From: a virus
Strand: one strand, 5' to 3'
DNA: 40,095 nucleotides
Virus record (IMG/VR): IMGVR_UViG_3300029868_000012
Shown: one piece after another, positions 3,902-40,095 of the stretch
Numbering within the stretch: the first letter of the stretch is position 1
Layout: each line of letters starts with the position of its first letter
Notes under the pieces: generated by a model
What the model saw: only the letters and a program-made list of their open reading frames with translations
Databases searched by the model: none
What the model was told of the DNA's origin: nothing
Program-made: the position numbers and the translations under genes

Positions 3902-4417
3902 ATGTTGACCCAAGAACAGCTCAAAGAATTTCTACACTATTGCCCTAAGTCGGGTGTTTTTACGTGGAACAAGCCATTAGGAATAAAGGTTAAGCCTGGA
4001 AGTGTCGCAGGAAGCATTGATAGCCATGGCTATATTTTGATAACCATCAATAGAAAGCACTACAAAGCCCACAGGCTGGCGTTTTTGTATATGGAAAACA
4101 AAATGCCAGAACACCAGGGTGATCATATAAATCATGTAAGAACAGACAATAGATGGAAAAACCTACGATGCGCAACTCACTCCGACAACGGGAGAAATAC
4201 AAAGCTACATTCAAACAATAAGTCCGGAATATCTGGAATTTCCTTCTCAAAAGATAGGGAGAAGTGGCAGGCATTCATAAAGGTGAGCGGTAAAAATCAT
4301 TATTTGGGGAGATTTAAAGGAAAGTTTGAGGCTTGCTGTGCCAGAAAATCAGCAGAAATTAAGTGTGGGTTTCATGAAAATCATGGAGATCCATTATCTC
4401 ATCCCGTTGTGTTCTAG
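3902..4417 (+). CDS. HNH homing endonuclease with a C-terminal AP2-like DNA-binding domain
   Basis: 171 aa. HGY..I......KAHRLAF...., DHINHVRTDNRWKNLRCATHSDN (HNH_3-type), then SGISGISFSKDREKWQAFIKVSGKNHYLGRF (AP2-like). Runs opposite to the surrounding late genes. Confidence 0.75.
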   Translation: MLTQEQLKEFLHYCPKSGVFTWNKPLGIKVKPGSVAGSIDSHGYILITINRKHYKAHRLAFLYMENKMPEHQGDHINHVRTDNRWKNLRCATHSDNGRNTKLHSNNKSGISGISFSKDREKWQAFIKVSGKNHYLGRFKGKFEACCARKSAEIKCGFHENHGDPLSHPVVF

Positions 4418-4741: not shown

Positions 4742-4826
4742 ACTATGTCGATACCTTTGTGCGTGCGCTTGCCTCTGGGGGCCTTGTAATGACCAGCGCC
4801 CCAGATATCCTGACCTCTTATTCTTA

Positions 4827-7160
4827 TCATATAACCGGAGGGTTAACAGTTGCAGATACGCGCATCTGATCGCCACCTGATCCAGCTGTTACGACTGTAA
4901 ACTTAACATTTATGTTTGTAGCGTCAATCGAAACGACTCTAGTAACAACAACAGGATCACCGGTCAATGTACCCTCATCAATCATCGTCACTCTAATTTG
5001 AGATGCAATATCATCGAGAAGTGACGGAGTTGCCAGCGCTAAAGTATCAAGGTTATGCGCTATAGCTACGCTGAAAGTACCAGTGCCATCTACATTCTGT
5101 ACACCTGATAAAACTGCACACGCGTTCTTATAGCCTGCCAGCGGTCGAATAATACAATCCCTACCGGCAATGGTGTCTACTATCTTTTCAAAAGGTGCGT
5201 TTAAATCACCTGTAGCACCTGAAGCTAGTACATCTGCGTCCAGTACATGACACTCATTAGAAAGAACATTTACACCATATTTAGGCTGGTTAGTTGTCGT
5301 TTCCGTTGGGTGGTCTTTACGAATCGTTCCGCCATGTACAGATACGTTTTGGCATCCAAGATTGATCAGTATGTTGTCGTAGGTGTCATCTGTAACCTGA
5401 CTATTCGCATATACATTGGGTAGGGTTATGTTTATGTCAGAAACACCAGTAGCAGCGGTTGTGCCATCACCGTTACCGTTCACATAAATTCCCTGTCTGG
5501 CGCAAAGCTCAACAGTAGGATTGATAATATCAACCCCTCTAACGCCGTTCCGAACCCCTATGCCATGACCTAGCGTTGTTCCTTCTTTAGTGCCTTCAAG
5601 TATGCCTTTAACAAAGGGTGCGATAACCTTGATTCGTCGCGCTGAAGCCTGACTACCTGAACCAGCACCATCGATATCAATACCAACACCGAAACACTCC
5701 AGCACTTCTGCTGACGTAATGGTGACTGATCCTGTGCCATCGGGTGAAACTACTCGAATGCCACCAAAACCGTTGGATGACGTGCCACAGTTCTTAACGT
5801 AAGGCGCTGTAATAGTGACCGAATCAATGCGGCCTGGGCTGGTATCAACTATTTCTATACCGGAGCCAAGATTGTTAATGGATTTAACGCCATGCAACCC
5901 AACGCGTTCACATATAAAATCACCAGATACTTGGAAGAAATCAGGCTCTACATCAAAACCAGCTTGAGGTGATCCACCGTTAGCACCATCGGCAACAGTT
6001 CCCCAGAAATCTATCCCCTTATTATTTAGGATGGACACGTTATTTCTAAAGTTATTCTTAATCAGTCCACCGTATATATTTACGTTTATACAGGTAGAAT
6101 CGTTGTTATTGTCACCATCAGCAGGGCCATAGGGTAGAGCGTCAATCATTATCCCATCGCCAAATACATCAAGTACAGTCGGCGTGGTTATGTTCGAATC
6201 TTGGCAGTTCGCAATGAAAATGCCGAATCCGTAGTTGGTATCTACTGGGGAATGTGTCGATCTCTCACCTTTGATGGTTCCCGTACCCGTTAACGATATG
6301 TTACTAACTCGATTGGGTGTGGTCGAAGTAGAGCCACGTTTGCGGCCAAATAATATAGCCATGTATCTATTGTCGTGACTATCGACGTTAAGCGTGCAGC
6401 CTCTTAATTCAACCTCTACGTTGTCATAGGGGAATTCGATCTGTTTGGCCAAATCACCAGCAGCCCTGAATGTAGGCTCTATAAGGTATTCACCAGGAGG
6501 AATAATTAGCTTGCCGCCTTTGCCATCGGAAAATAACTCCATCGCAGCAATCCAAGCGGAATTTATAAATGTCACGTTACCAGGGTCACCACCAGCAGCA
6601 ATCAAATCAACGCTGCCGGATACTTTTCTAAGTACCAAGGATAAAGTAGCAACGCCGGTACATTGTACGACTGTGAAAGTGTTCTCTGTAACAGTAGAAC
6701 TTAGAACAACATTCCACTTCCCGCCGCCACCTATGCCGGTAGCTCTCTCCGCTATGTCTAAAACATCACCGTCATCAAGCGCTGCATCAGATACCGCTAG
6801 CGCCAAAGTTGGGAAGTCTTTAACAAAGCCGAATTGCTGTGTAGTTAAGAATGGGAAAATCTTGTCAATATCATAAAGCGCATTGCCGAAGGTGTTATTA
6901 TCGGCGTCAGTAGCATTCGGATATAGAACGAAACGATACTTTTGATCAATATGAGGGACAAATACAGCATCCGAACCATTAACCGCTCTGCCTTGGCTGT
7001 TTACTTTGGCCTTGGCTAATAGCGTTCCACCCGTTGAATCTGTTGACATTGATATAGGTGTAGTGGTTTCTGAGGCATACAGCTTTATATATGCGTCGAC
7101 TGCTGCAATGTTATTCTCAATGTATTGGAGTGCATCACCTGCGATTTGCGTGAAGGCCAT
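4827..7160 (-). CDS. Tailspike with right-handed beta-helix (pectate-lyase-like depolymerase)
   Basis: 777 aa. N-terminal adaptor-like region, then many short Gly/Asn/Ile-rich beta-helix turns (NISLTGTGTIKG, NVNIYGGLIKNNFRNNVSILNN, GIEIVD..., GIGVRNGVRGVDIIN). Confidence 0.7.
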   Translation of the reverse strand: MAFTQIAGDALQYIENNIAAVDAYIKLYASETTTPISMSTDSTGGTLLAKAKVNSQGRAVNGSDAVFVPHIDQKYRFVLYPNATDADNNTFGNALYDIDKIFPFLTTQQFGFVKDFPTLALAVSDAALDDGDVLDIAERATGIGGGGKWNVVLSSTVTENTFTVVQCTGVATLSLVLRKVSGSVDLIAAGGDPGNVTFINSAWIAAMELFSDGKGGKLIIPPGEYLIEPTFRAAGDLAKQIEFPYDNVEVELRGCTLNVDSHDNRYMAILFGRKRGSTSTTPNRVSNISLTGTGTIKGERSTHSPVDTNYGFGIFIANCQDSNITTPTVLDVFGDGIMIDALPYGPADGDNNNDSTCINVNIYGGLIKNNFRNNVSILNNKGIDFWGTVADGANGGSPQAGFDVEPDFFQVSGDFICERVGLHGVKSINNLGSGIEIVDTSPGRIDSVTITAPYVKNCGTSSNGFGGIRVVSPDGTGSVTITSAEVLECFGVGIDIDGAGSGSQASARRIKVIAPFVKGILEGTKEGTTLGHGIGVRNGVRGVDIINPTVELCARQGIYVNGNGDGTTAATGVSDINITLPNVYANSQVTDDTYDNILINLGCQNVSVHGGTIRKDHPTETTTNQPKYGVNVLSNECHVLDADVLASGATGDLNAPFEKIVDTIAGRDCIIRPLAGYKNACAVLSGVQNVDGTGTFSVAIAHNLDTLALATPSLLDDIASQIRVTMIDEGTLTGDPVVVTRVVSIDATNINVKFTVVTAGSGGDQMRVSATVNPPVI

Positions 7161-36066: not shown

Positions 36067-36396
36067 TTAAGCCCTTGCTTCTAAGCTCTTTTTGATAGGA
36101 TCCTTAGCCATCTTTAGCCCTGCCTCTATAAACGCCTTCCAGCTACCATAGATTAGGAACCATTCACCCTCTAGCCTTCTATGCTTCTTGGATCCAAGCC
36201 TATGCAAGCACCTTTCTACTATCTCGGCCTCCCTCTTTGTTTCGACCTCAATTGTCTTACATAGCTTTAGCTTTACTGGGCTTCCTGTTTGAAGGTTTTT
36301 AAGCCTCGCTTCTGGATCCAGTGAGTAGCCAATCTTTACAGGTTGGATCCCTTTTCTGCCTTTCTGCTTTTGCTGTATAAAATATACCTTGTACAT
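36067..36396 (-). CDS. T5orf172 / MUG113-type (GIY-YIG superfamily) protein
   Basis: 109 aa. YKVYFI.....VKIGYSLDPEARLKNLQTGSPVKLKL......EAE..E..LH.......EGEWF. GGAGGA RBS. Confidence 0.6.
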   Translation of the reverse strand: MYKVYFIQQKQKGRKGIQPVKIGYSLDPEARLKNLQTGSPVKLKLCKTIEVETKREAEIVERCLHRLGSKKHRRLEGEWFLIYGSWKAFIEAGLKMAKDPIKKSLEARA

Positions 36397-36423
36397 TGCT
36401 TTCCTCCGGTTATAAGAACCCTA

Positions 36424-36489
36424 CTATCCACACCTTGGACTAATCATACTGCTAGTCTCTACAGGCTTTATTGAATAGGTTGATCCACA
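36424..36489 (+). promoter_or_regulatory. Two direct DnaA-box-like sites
   Basis: CTATCCACA (36424..36432) and TGATCCACA (36481..36489) each match TTATCCACA at 8/9 positions. They share the 10-mer ATCCACACCT. A third 7/9 match in reverse orientation lies at 36501..36509. Confidence 0.4.
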
Positions 36490-37047
36490 CCTCCCAATTA
36501 AGGGGATAATCACCAGAAACTTTCATTTCCAATCAGTAATTACCTGGAACCTATAAATAGGCCCGAATTAAGTGCCCTAGTTGACAAGGGTTAGGTCATT
36601 GCTAGGCGTTGGGCTTTTCGATTGTTTTAAATCTGCATTGAATAGAGTGCTGGTTAGCTTGTCAGGAGACTTTTACGGGGCTGAGTATGCGCTAACAATA
36701 CGTCCCACCTGACCAACAGCAGAAGGCGGGTTTTCAGGCCGTTATCCTTCCGTTACTCTAATCAATGCAGACTTTCCGGTTGAGAAAGCAGCATAACCAT
36801 TCCGGTTAAGAGCGTATATGAAGGGACACTTTGAGGTTTGAACCAATTCAAGCTAGCAACTATCGCACGGTTTCACCGCTAGCTAATGGGAGTCGAACCC
36901 TGAACACTGTGCTGTGTCCGTAACCTCTAGCCTTCTAAATCCGTCAATCAGCCCGCCGTCGCCGTTTGATTGCTTCATTGTCGAGCTATTAAGTGCCACC
37001 ACATATACGCTCTCTAGAAATCATTTCTGAAATCTATAACCGATGAT

Positions 37048-37077
37048 TTGCTATAAACGGGATGAATACACTATAAT
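37048..37077 (+). promoter_or_regulatory. Sigma-70-like promoter on the strand opposite the early genes
   Basis: TTGCTA (37048..37053), 18-nt spacer, TATAAT (37072..37077). Confidence 0.4.
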
Positions 37078-37083
37078 GAGGAC

Positions 37084-37199
37084 ATAGCCGAAGCGGTTTT
37101 GAATTGTGCTCATCATATTTTATTCAAACCGTGTCCTGCAAAGACATCGGCTTTAGTTATTTATACTAGACTAGGGTGGCCACTGTGTCACCCTTTTTT
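37084..37199 (+). ncRNA. Candidate small RNA of about 115 nt (promoter to terminator), antisense to the last 12 nt of gene 37188..37598
   Basis: Bounded by promoter 37048..37077 and terminator 37173..37199. Contains a 10-bp hairpin at 37094..37131 (CGGTTT(T)GAAT / ATTCAAACCG). No ORF. Confidence 0.35.
37173..37199 (+). terminator. Rho-independent terminator, plus-strand orientation
   Basis: AGGGTGGC-cactgt-GTGTCACCCT: 8 bp including one G-U, GC-rich, followed by a T-run through 37199. The reverse orientation lacks a U-tract. Confidence 0.6.
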
Positions 37200-37598
37200 A
37201 GTTAGCTCTCTATGATTTATCTCGCCATGAAGATAAACCCTAACCCAATGATTGCAGCTTGAAACGCAATGTGACTCGCCATTCTCATCGATCAATCTAC
37301 CCATGTTATTCCATGCGTGAACGTACCGGCCACGGACAATATTATAAACAGCATTAACGCTATCTTTGCTAAGCTTATAATTCGTCAGCATGTAGTCAAC
37401 AGTAGCGCCGTAAGGCGGATTACCAAACCCATTAGGCCCAGGGCCATGCTGACAGGTTTCTGTTGCACCTAACTCGCCGTTCTCGATCCAATCTTTATAC
37501 GTTCTGTCCATGCATCCCCAAAATGACCGTATGCTTTCCATCTCATGGCCAGGAATCCAGCCGTCAAATATATAATCACCAAATGTATTATCACTCAT
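37188..37598 (-). CDS. Hypothetical protein
   Basis: 136-aa ORF, ATGA-coupled upstream. Confidence 0.5.
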   Translation of the reverse strand: MSDNTFGDYIFDGWIPGHEMESIRSFWGCMDRTYKDWIENGELGATETCQHGPGPNGFGNPPYGATVDYMLTNYKLSKDSVNAVYNIVRGRYVHAWNNMGRLIDENGESHCVSSCNHWVRVYLHGEINHRELTKKG

Positions 37599-39101: not shown

Positions 39102-39127
39102 GCTATCCCCGTTGGTTTGTTTCAGTA

Positions 39128-39156
39128 ATAGTAGTTTAAACTTATTTCCATGTAAA
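39128..39156 (-). promoter_or_regulatory. Sigma-70-like early promoter for the leftward operon
   Basis: Minus strand reads TTTACA (39156..39151), 17-nt spacer, TACTAT (39133..39128). About 27 nt upstream of ATG 39101. Confidence 0.4.
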
Positions 39157-39251
39157 GCAAATTTGATGCATTAAAATAAACAAAAAGGTTGCACCGATTA
39201 TAATCATGCTCTAAGCTTCAGTTATCGAATCAAGCAACGGGGATAAGAACG

Positions 39252-39686: not shown

Positions 39687-40095
39687 TGAATGACAAATGG
39701 GTGGTAAACAGCGACCACACTGAAGAGGTCTTCATCGCTCATGCTAGAAAGTTATATCAGCAGCATAAGTATGTTGAATTCAGCATAAAGGCAGGGGCAA
39801 AGAGGACTAACCCACAGAATGCAGCGCTTCATGTGTATCTGAAGCAGGTAGCAGACGCATTCAACGCCGCTGGGCTTGATATGAAGCAAACCCTTAGCGC
39901 TGATATAGATACGCCTTGGACTGCCTTACTGGTTAAAGAGCTGATCTGGAAGGTGGTACAGAAAGCGACTATAGACGAAACGAGTACAACGAAAGCTAAC
40001 CGCACCGACTACACTTTAATCTACGAAACAATTAACCGACACACAGCTAGTACCTGGGGGATCTCGATTCCTTGGCCTACTAAGGAGCAATCAGA
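39686..40095 (+). CDS. ninB: NinB-like recombination protein, N-terminal part (continues at 1..123)
   Basis: GTG 39686 overlaps the upstream TAG. Translated by hand: ...VEFSIKAGAKRTNPQNAALHVYLKQVADAF... resembles lambda NinB ..RNRSLDQNRKLWACLGDVS. Open to the window end. Confidence 0.55.
   Translation, partial: MNDKWVVNSDHTEEVFIAHARKLYQQHKYVEFSIKAGAKRTNPQNAALHVYLKQVADAFNAAGLDMKQTLSADIDTPWTALLVKELIWKVVQKATIDETSTTKANRTDYTLIYETINRHTASTWGISIPWPTKEQS
39977..40095. repeat. Terminal direct repeat, exact copy of 1..119
   Basis: Identical base by base. Confidence 0.95.

Follow-up and report, generated by a model that had tools for sequence, protein, structure and literature searches.

What is encoded by a stretch of phage DNA that holds no protein-coding frame of appreciable size? 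This question is raised by IMG/VR record IMGVR_UViG_3300029868_000012, a viral DNA of 40,095 nucleotides (the window, analyzed at its full length), in which the segment from 36397 to 37187 contains no open reading frame (ORF) of 60 amino acids (aa) or more in any of the six frames. The initial annotation had singled out this ORF-free island, and we found it to be the longest stretch without such an ORF in the ~40-kb genome, the next internal one measuring 309 bp. The statement that its ORFs do not exceed 31 codons did not hold, as they reach 43 codons when GTG and TTG starts are allowed. We propose that the island is very probably a gene, read from the minus strand, for a multi-domain structured noncoding RNA belonging to a new family. 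The RNA would, with good confidence, be at least ~0.6 kb long, or ~0.75 kb if it starts at the promoter predicted at the island edge. Both flanking genes lie on the minus strand, as does the RNA locus. The parts of the locus that matter for its identification are as follows.

36397..37187 (791 bp), minus strand: ORF-free island, corresponding to the whole RNA locus
36414..36623 (210 nt), minus strand: conserved 3' core, ~206 model positions, with six helices and a proposed pseudoknot
36067..36396, minus strand: downstream neighbor, a 109-aa T5orf172/MUG113 (GIY-YIG-like) putative homing endonuclease (Pfam PF10544 and PF13455), whose gene begins 17 nt past the RNA core

Family membership and covariation

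Contigs encoding homologues of the T5orf172 protein display ORF-poor gaps of ~520 to 800 bp in front of the gene, in gene neighborhoods that differ from each other. By blastn, similarity between these gaps is confined to their gene-proximal part, namely, ~230 nt in L004-L006 and ~95 nt in L007-L012 (L numbers designate the other loci or contigs used for comparison). Their alignment revealed invariant blocks alternating with hairpins, the stems of which differ in sequence yet still pair. When one invariant block was turned into a search pattern, 4 IMG/VR and 22 JGI metagenome contigs were recovered, and a looser pattern added L040, L051, and L053.

We trained a covariance model, R1, on a MAFFT alignment of 21 other loci, leaving this phage out. 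R1 matched the phage genome at a single place, 36414-36623 on the minus strand, with 138.6 bits and an E value of 2.8e-41, over model positions 1-206 of 206. This full-length match to a model from which it had been excluded places the phage in the new family. In addition, the upstream elements X, Y, and P0, with their family-specific closing helices, are present here, and their arms are compensated relative to those of other contigs. R1 also matched 36 other loci, plus L051 and L053, giving 38 other marine viral or metagenome loci in all. It turned down all chance pattern matches, i.e., L041, a candidate member that proved to be a match within coding sequence, and eight from bacterial genomes; two pattern scans of 185,579 species genomes (one genome each) had given 0 and 8 matches, and R1 rejected all 8.

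Searches in other collections did not extend the family. The island and two other cores had no blastn match among 50,697 GenBank phage records, and IMG/VR searches anchored on both flanking proteins found nothing. The invariant core sequences occurred in no paper that we found, a catalogue of 10,006 candidate viral structured RNAs (PMC10690425) lying outside this comparison. The core, P0, and modules X and Y define a family that we encountered solely in uncultured marine viral contigs.

Covariation, which the initial annotation had put forward as a check on homologous islands, was evaluated on the unfitted MAFFT alignment of the 21 loci with 49 hand-curated pairs. In this alignment, 97.2% of the cells were paired, versus 86.6% after shuffling of the partners, and both-sided, compensatory changes were found in 24 of the 49 pairs, versus 11.1 ± 1.6 in the shuffles. 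None of 500 shuffles attained any of five covariation measures, a test which overstates significance because the sequences are related, and roughly half of the pairs are uninformative because the ~70 invariant nucleotides of the core, located mostly outside helices, never vary. When the partners were slid by 1 to 3 columns, pairing fell to 31 to 45%. RNAalifold, run on the same alignment, gave 45 pairs, 21 of which were compensatory, while 25 of 43 pairs were compensatory in the R1-fitted alignment, which is biased towards structure. As read from these aligned sequences, the covariation shows purifying selection on structure.

The strand could also be assigned. The family core contains 109 G.U cells versus 8 A.C cells, so that the helices would be much poorer on the opposite strand, and the mismatches in both long inverted repeats of the island turn into G.U pairs on the minus strand only. 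All helices taken together thus clearly favor the minus strand, where the initial annotation had seen conflicting G-U evidence. In line with this, the fold of the segment 36600-37050 scored z = -3.25 on the minus strand and z = -1.46 on the plus strand relative to shuffled sequence, and individual domains reached z = -3.5 to -5.0. A protein gene disrupted in this phage and intact in homologues, which had been named as the finding that would speak against an RNA, was not encountered: every frame of every member contains stops (six frames). Covariation, tetraloops, G.U asymmetry, and the independent covariance-model match thus all support the large structured RNA that had been listed among the candidate readings.

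Comparison with known RNAs argues for a separate family. A scan of the whole genome against Rfam 15 gave no match at the gathering threshold, and nothing meaningful appeared at E <= 10 in the segment 36200-37400; the low scorers, HOTTIP_2 at 9.4 bits and mir-95 in L004, were noise. ARAGORN predicted no transfer RNA (tRNA) or transfer-messenger RNA (tmRNA) gene in this genome or in any of the loci scanned.

Architecture of the predicted RNA

On the minus strand, the order of elements in this phage is a 5' hairpin region, domain X (37014-36808), hairpin P0 (36807-36776), domain Y (36774-36629), and the core (36623-36414). As seen in the alignment, the core consists of six covarying helices joined by long invariant junctions, including two GGUGUGRAU elements. 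Its parts are the following.

36606-36572, minus strand: helix Pa, CCUAG/CUAGG, with inner UGAC/GUCA and conserved loop UAACCCUUG
36564-36546, minus strand: variable hairpin Pb
36543-36506, minus strand: helix Pc, a long hairpin with compensatory changes in 6 of 7 outer pairs and 3 of 3 inner pairs
36505-36492, minus strand: hairpin Pd, CCCC-UUAAUU-GGGA, with variable stem sequence
36491-36481, minus strand: invariant GGUGUGGAUCA, kept in all members; the first GGUGUGGAU element, to which it belongs, spans 36478..36491
36478-36464, minus strand: invariant CUAUUCAAUAAAGCC; its CUAUUCA forms helix Pf with UGGAUAG of the second repeat
36457-36438, minus strand: hairpin Pe
36434-36416, minus strand: second invariant element GGUGUGGAUAGUAGGGUUC, forming the 3' strand of Pf and the pseudoknot tail and holding the second DnaA-like box
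36587..36592, minus strand: AACCCU, 5' half of the proposed pseudoknot, with partner AGGGUU at 36417-36422

The outer pairs of Pa covary between CCAUG/CAUGG, CCGAG/CUCGG, CCUAG/CUAGG, and CGUAG/CUACG, with 100% of the cells paired. In place of the loop of Pd, other members harbor the tetraloops GCAA, GAAA, GAGA, or UUCG. Helix Pf is 99% paired; U-A alternates with U.G at its R position, and L053 has a compensating C-G. A pseudoknot between the Pa loop and the tail probably spans the core. Its strands read AACCCC/GGGGUU in most members, CCCU/AGGG in this phage and the L005 lineage, and UACCCC/GGGGUA in L029 and L019, so that the changes from C-G to U-A in the former lineage and from A-U to U-A in the latter two support it.

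Upstream of the core, we identified the following modules.

36807-36776, minus strand: P0 hairpin, AACCGG...loop...CCGG
36774-36629, minus strand: domain Y, closed by the inverted repeat AAGUCUGCAUUGAUUAGAGU / ACUCUAUUCAAUGCAGAUUU
37014-36808, minus strand: domain X, with a multi-branch interior, closed by a 23-nt inverted repeat
36900-36888, minus strand: T-loop-like hairpin GGG-UUCGACU-CCC inside X, fitting UUCRANY with a G-C closing pair
36844-36835, minus strand: second T-loop-like hairpin inside X
37040..37160, minus strand: 5' region of the RNA; it includes a small hairpin resembling domain X (UAUGAUGAG...CUCAUUAUA); fold z = -5.0

All other lineages have a homologue of P0 immediately 5' of the core; its stem varies, while its loop (UUnAUUGAUGCAGU) is semi-conserved. 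Domain Y (fold z = -3.9) is closed by the long-range inverted repeat that had been described initially as 19/20 nt and that proved real (36629-48/36755-74; 20 nt, 90%). Its closing helix, GAGUCU-RY-AUUG...CAAU-RY-AGACUC, also occurs in L016, L031, L032, L033, and L019; its RY positions show four different compensated combinations, and a G.U pair recurs on the sense strand. In comparison with L005, domain Y represents extra sequence inserted between P0 and the core.

Domain X (fold z = -3.5) is closed by the inverted repeat 36809-31/36991-37013 (23 nt, 83%). Its signature, N10-AUGUGGUG...CCCUUCAU-N10', is present in this phage, in L031 and L033, and twice in L040; the flanks of these copies differ yet are fully complementary, and the geometry of the internal loop is conserved. 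Three more base pairs of X are compensated here (GGCACUU/AAGUGUC versus GGUGCUG/CAGCACC). Two smaller elements noted at the outset, the 7-bp helix AGCTAGC/GCTAGCT and the T-loop-like GGG-AGTCGAA-CCC, both appear inside X in the minimum-free-energy fold of the minus strand. T-arm motifs are likewise frequent in the variable regions of other members. The order of the modules is X-P0-Y-core here and Y-X-P0-core in other members.

Members range in size from ~350 nt, for L051 and L053, which consist of promoter, hairpin, P0, and core, up to ~1 kb for L040, the longer ones having extra modules between promoter and P0. One of these modules, located ~350-490 nt upstream of the core in L040, is 138 nt long and folds as a class-II tRNA-like cloverleaf (z = -5.4). 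Its D arm reads GCG-GAAUUGGUAGA-CGC and its T arm CCAGG-UUCAAAU-CCUGG, and a variable arm is present as well; the acceptor helix is extended, measuring 18 bp, and the place of the anticodon arm is taken by a long arm. Neither ARAGORN nor Rfam detected this cloverleaf.

The tRNA-like domains of tmRNA and YrlA resemble these elements in their UUCRANY T-loop hairpins and, for L040, in a cloverleaf with D arm, variable arm, T arm, and extended acceptor. They differ in that no Rfam tRNA, tmRNA, or Yrl match and no anticodon loop, CCA end, or tag frame were found here, and in this phage only isolated T-loop hairpins are seen. A tRNA or tmRNA gene was rejected on these grounds together with the negative ARAGORN result. 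T-arm, acceptor-like, and CCA-like strings in L017, L035, and L005 had prompted the idea of a tmRNA, but a one-piece or permuted form was equally rejected, there being no tag frame and no conserved stop after the invariant CUAUUCAAUAAAGCC, while the L040 module is unpermuted and without CCA.

Many members (L016, L007, L025 [4815-5020], L032, L035, and L040) harbor a conserved 5' module without counterpart in this phage or in L005. It consists of a sigma-70-like promoter, a small hairpin, and a 10-bp CUUUAGAAAG/CUUUCUAAAG helix closing a domain, inside which lies a conserved terminator-like hairpin, GGGCU..AGCCC followed by U6-7, ~150 nt from the start. Such a module could give short and long forms of the RNA.

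Promoters, possible functions, and rival explanations

At the right edge of the island, we found putative signals on both strands.

37191-37163, minus strand: putative sense promoter GTGACA-17-TAGTAT (9 of 12 positions matched)
37048..37077, plus strand: putative antisense promoter TTGCTA-18-TATAAT (10 of 12 positions matched)
37084..37200, plus strand: putative small antisense RNA (~115 nt) with an intrinsic terminator at its end; fold z = -4.0

Sense sigma-70-like promoters at the 5' edge of the island are also present in L007, L025, L035, and L051, as well as, by eye, in L053. The terminator of the putative antisense RNA (37173-37200) has a stem of 8 pairs, 5 of them G-C, at 37173-37194, followed by T6, and lies ~95 nt past the antisense promoter. 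The 10-bp hairpin and the strong terminator oriented against the flanking genes, both reported initially, were recovered. By contrast, the plus-strand promoter pair TTGTAC-16-TATAAG reported with them was not returned by the promoter scan, TTGCTA-18-TATAAT being the better candidate. The antisense RNA would be complementary to the promoter of the large RNA and to its initial ~70 nt, and the sites fit such an arrangement. At the equivalent place, L005, which is only ~50% identical to this phage in the right-end region, has an antisense TTGCAA-17-TATTAT and, at the same boundary, an antisense hairpin with a U run. The unit is seen only in this phage and the L005 lineage; other lineages are without it. 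Moreover, antisense promoter- and terminator-like sites occur at about the chance rate, and the promoter could be fortuitous because its -10 hexamer complements a structural strand. We rate the existence of this small RNA at somewhat below an even chance.

A tentative scheme can be drawn from these elements. Transcription would start at the sigma-70-type promoter of the locus, proceed towards the early operon, and, as no terminator follows the core, would run on into the next gene. The folded RNA would then act in its own right, either processed out of the transcript, possibly at the tRNA-like or long-helix modules, or staying as its 5' domain; in this lineage, the ~115-nt antisense RNA may span its 5' end. 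The invariant nucleotides, tetraloops, T-loops, and modules point to a tertiary-folded RNA that, by analogy, would act as an RNA (scaffold, assembly, or catalyst).

Large, highly structured RNAs of bacteria and phages that have no known function are rare, and OLE, GOLLD, ROOL, and raiA each grew into a research program. The closest analog in layout is GOLLD, in which the 3' region is universally conserved, the 5' region less so, and the linker sometimes contains tRNAs; it occurs in phages and marine metagenomes, reaches more than 800 nt, and has no known function (PMC12286853). Like GOLLD (RF01998), the present family is phage encoded and large and combines a 3' core that is conserved with upstream modules that vary; it also has T-arm motifs and, in L040, a tRNA-like cloverleaf. 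These are matters of resemblance only. GOLLD differs by a conserved core of ~400 nt, versus ~210-260 nt here, and by tRNAs in the linker, whereas we found tRNA-like modules, not recognizable tRNAs, and no terminator after the RNA. ROOL (RF03087) is likewise a large pseudoknotted RNA of phages and prophages, without known function and often near tRNAs. It differs in being found in Bacillota and rumen phages, without such a modular variable 5' region. Neither Rfam model matched this phage or the other members scanned at any threshold tried, nor did we see by eye any resemblance to the shown part of the GOLLD env-38 sequence. The similarity to GOLLD or ROOL suggested initially thus extends to architecture and not to sequence, and because the models do not match, we filed the RNA as a new family among the ornate large phage RNAs.

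A stand-alone ornate phage RNA, comparable to GOLLD and ROOL, would be the likeliest function of the island; among the possible RNA functions, we give it about an even chance. Several observations count against it or against details of the proposed RNA, in addition to the relatedness and invariance of the aligned sequences mentioned above. The function is assigned entirely by analogy. The first ~145 nt of this phage's RNA align weakly and with the 5' region of L005 alone. Promoters are consensus matches found at about the chance rate. For a free-standing stable RNA, the lack of a terminator 3' of the core would be unusual. The pseudoknot is graded as probable because of the small number of compensatory events and because RNAalifold gives another partner, the alternative being a GRAUC/GGUUC helix. 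Finally, the differing order of the modules could also mean that they are inserted DNA elements.

The family matters in several ways. GOLLD and ROOL form RNA-only nanocages (PMC12286853). A sequence-unrelated family with a GOLLD-like layout, i.e., a conserved 3' domain and a variable region with tRNA-like modules in the early region of a phage, would show that this design arose more than once in phages. The family offers a natural size series, from minimal forms of ~350 nt to elaborated ones of ~1 kb, the compact minimal form being suited to structural work; it displays strong covariation from just ~25 distinct sequences, and its tight link to early and replication genes suggests testable functions. 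For annotation, the largest "empty" region of the genome becomes a defined gene. A more far-reaching version, which we advance only tentatively, is that of a new giant modular class of phage RNA. In this class, a pseudoknotted core of ~260 nt would work as an RNA machine (ribozyme or self-assembling scaffold) and carry plug-in helical modules, including tRNA-like cloverleaves; it would be made early and be antisense controlled in some lineages. This would represent a third independent invention of an ornate phage RNA with tethered tRNA-like cargo.

The next explanation is that the island is a giant cis-acting leader, i.e., a promoter-proximal RNA acting on the transcription of the downstream early or replication operon, by terminator read-through, as in HK022 put and the EAR RNAs, or by attenuation. 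We regard this as rather unlikely, while ranking it second among the possible functions. It competes with the stand-alone function proposed above and leaves the identification as an RNA untouched. It would account for the promoter of its own at the 5' edge of the island, the lack of a terminator after the core, and the ORF that begins 17-35 nt past the core in most members. In L025, the promoter lies directly behind the terminator of the upstream genes, which makes the genes further down dependent on transcription from this unit; in L051, a divergent control region contains the RNA at the head of a rightward operon; and many members have the terminator-like hairpin with its U run. However, this hairpin sits upstream of the core, which therefore cannot act on it, and this phage and L005 are without it. 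Known antiterminator RNAs measure ~70-120 nt, whereas here ~260 conserved nt are combined with up to 700 nt of modules, one of them tRNA-like. HK022 put consists of two small stem-loops of ~70 nt. It too is a promoter-proximal structured RNA of a lambdoid-type early operon and shares the strand of the genes behind it, but differs from the multi-domain RNA of 0.35-1 kb seen here, which has a promoter of its own within the operon and, further down, no demonstrated terminator. There is also no conserved pairing with the ribosome-binding sites, which vary. The gene 3' of the core may encode T5orf172, a DPPY DNA methyltransferase, or small unknown proteins, and in L051 an AT-rich spacer of 130 nt separates the core from the first gene. 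Because of this variation and this spacer, the conserved unit is better described as a noncoding RNA element than as a leader tuned to a single gene. A riboswitch or translational leader for T5orf172 was rejected, the same core preceding unrelated genes.

L051 (5259-5998) carries a minimal RNA of ~370 nt in a divergent intergenic region, with a promoter of its own, TTGACC-17-TAGTAT. Of the contexts seen, only this one would fit an origin or an early control region.

A replication origin, which the initial annotation had proposed, is improbable. It would either combine the DnaA-like boxes with the CTATAA repeats or use a primer transcript, as in ColE1 or T4/T7, with the small RNA in the role of RNA I; the RNA-primed form with antisense control ranks third among the functions. 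In its favor, the O-like initiator gene and the replication genes are found downstream of the island, no other iteron array was seen in the genome, and AT-rich DNA follows the core in L051. The DnaA-box matches reported initially do exist: there are two 8/9 matches, at 36424-32 and 36481-89, 57 bp apart, and their elements are conserved in all members. They are, however, the complements of the two invariant GGUGUGGAU elements of the RNA core, and the genome contains 13 matches with at most one mismatch, versus 10.6 ± 3.1 in shuffles, i.e., no enrichment. About half of the members have GGUGUGAAU, a match of 7/9 or worse to the DnaA box, and the variable base of the box behaves as the U-A/U.G partner in helix Pf. 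The boxes are thus invariant single-stranded or junction elements of an RNA, conserved together with covarying helices. The three CTATAA copies were likewise confirmed, at 37034, 37051, and 37071, but L005 does not conserve them, and no tandem or iteron array was found in the island. Nor is there an unwinding element, since the G+C content of the island, 0.41-0.47, equals that of the flanks. An ORF directly behind the core, as in most members, also argues against an origin.

The primer version is suggested by the putative ~115-nt antisense RNA over the 5' end of a large structured RNA. ColE1 RNA II/RNA I shows the same arrangement of a long structured sense RNA with a ~110-nt antisense RNA, endowed with its own promoter and terminator, over the 5' part. 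Lambda oop is an antisense unit between cII and O that overlaps cII by ~55 nt, and the putative unit of this phage is similarly placed, with a gene of the early regulator region on one side and the replication genes on the other. The unit described here differs from oop in overlapping the upstream gene by only ~13 nt and from both systems in the lack of any evidence of priming or an origin and in being confined to this phage and the L005 lineage, most other members showing no antisense unit. Tetraloops, G.U asymmetry, and invariant junctions would moreover be superfluous for an R-loop primer.

Outside the island, two-copy exact repeats were seen in or just upstream of the O-like gene, at 34481-34494/34547-34560 (14 nt, spaced by 66 bp) and 34850-34862/34954-34966 (13 nt, spaced by 104 bp). 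They are the only iteron-like candidates there and are too few for an origin call.

We consider it very improbable that the inverted repeats of X and Y represent elements like miniature inverted-repeat transposable elements, or other selfish palindromic insertions, leaving only the 210-nt core functional. X and Y do have terminal inverted repeats of ~20 bp with conserved ends and variable interiors, module order varies by contig, and Y looks like a clean insertion when compared with L005. Nevertheless, in 153 kb of contigs scanned, their signatures occur only beside cores and in one orientation, which argues against dispersed selfish elements. Arm mismatches are preferentially G.U on the sense strand, the internal loops of X are conserved, and no flanking target duplications are evident.

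Least probable by far is a decayed remnant of a helicase gene, a tRNA cluster, a phage attachment site (attP), or a group I or II intron with its GIY-YIG gene, which the helicase next to the homologous gene in Shewanella phage 1/41, the T-loop-like motifs, and the endonuclease gene abutting the island might suggest, but which is contradicted by the stops in all frames of all members and by the strong covariation. More specifically, tblastn with the Shewanella helicase and its neighbors found nothing in the island; no match to Intron_gpI, Intron_gpII, or group-II-D1D4 was obtained at E <= 10, neighbors differ between contigs, and no host gene is interrupted because the flanking 136-aa gene is complete. 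The mid-operon position of the element and the lack of an integrase among the proteins scanned make an attP unlikely.

Genomic context

Bases 1-119 are repeated at 39977-40095, the ends of the phage genome, which is therefore complete, circular or terminally redundant, with a length of ~39,976 bp. Portal, terminase, capsid, and scaffold proteins are encoded on the minus strand, and the early region is of the lambdoid type, with RecT, NinG, and an O-like protein. The copy deposited at NCBI is labeled as a contig of a Flavobacteriales metagenome-assembled genome. Its genes have GGAGG ribosome-binding sites and sigma-70-like promoters, and the label is therefore probably due to mis-binning.

37188..37598, minus strand: upstream neighbor of the island, an intact gene for a 136-aa protein with a homologue in Shewanella phage 1/41

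The 136-aa protein is 55.6% identical to S141_67 of Shewanella phage 1/41 over residues 4-127, and S141_67 is its sole homologue among GenBank phages. In Shewanella phage 1/41 (L001, 916-3281), a 660-aa helicase is encoded directly behind this homologue; by tblastn, it has no counterpart anywhere in the present phage genome. At 39102-39251, a 150-bp divergent gap separates a 60-aa minus-strand gene from a 144-aa plus-strand gene and has the look of an early control region (cro/cI-like switch), at which the operon that includes the island would begin.

On the other side of the island, a T5orf172/GIY-YIG gene lies directly 3' of the core in four core subtypes (this phage and L005, L007, L028, and L030). 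From the sequences, this looks like a free-standing homing endonuclease repeatedly inserting beside a conserved RNA gene, and the RNA gene would explain why such an endonuclease recurs at one spot, as it appears to home beside it. In L028, the order is core, endonuclease, 197-aa gene, and methyltransferase, while in L016 the methyltransferase directly follows the core. A second putative homing-type nuclease of this phage, an HNH endonuclease (phrog_99, E 2e-69), is encoded on the plus strand at 3902-4417, beside the lysis genes.

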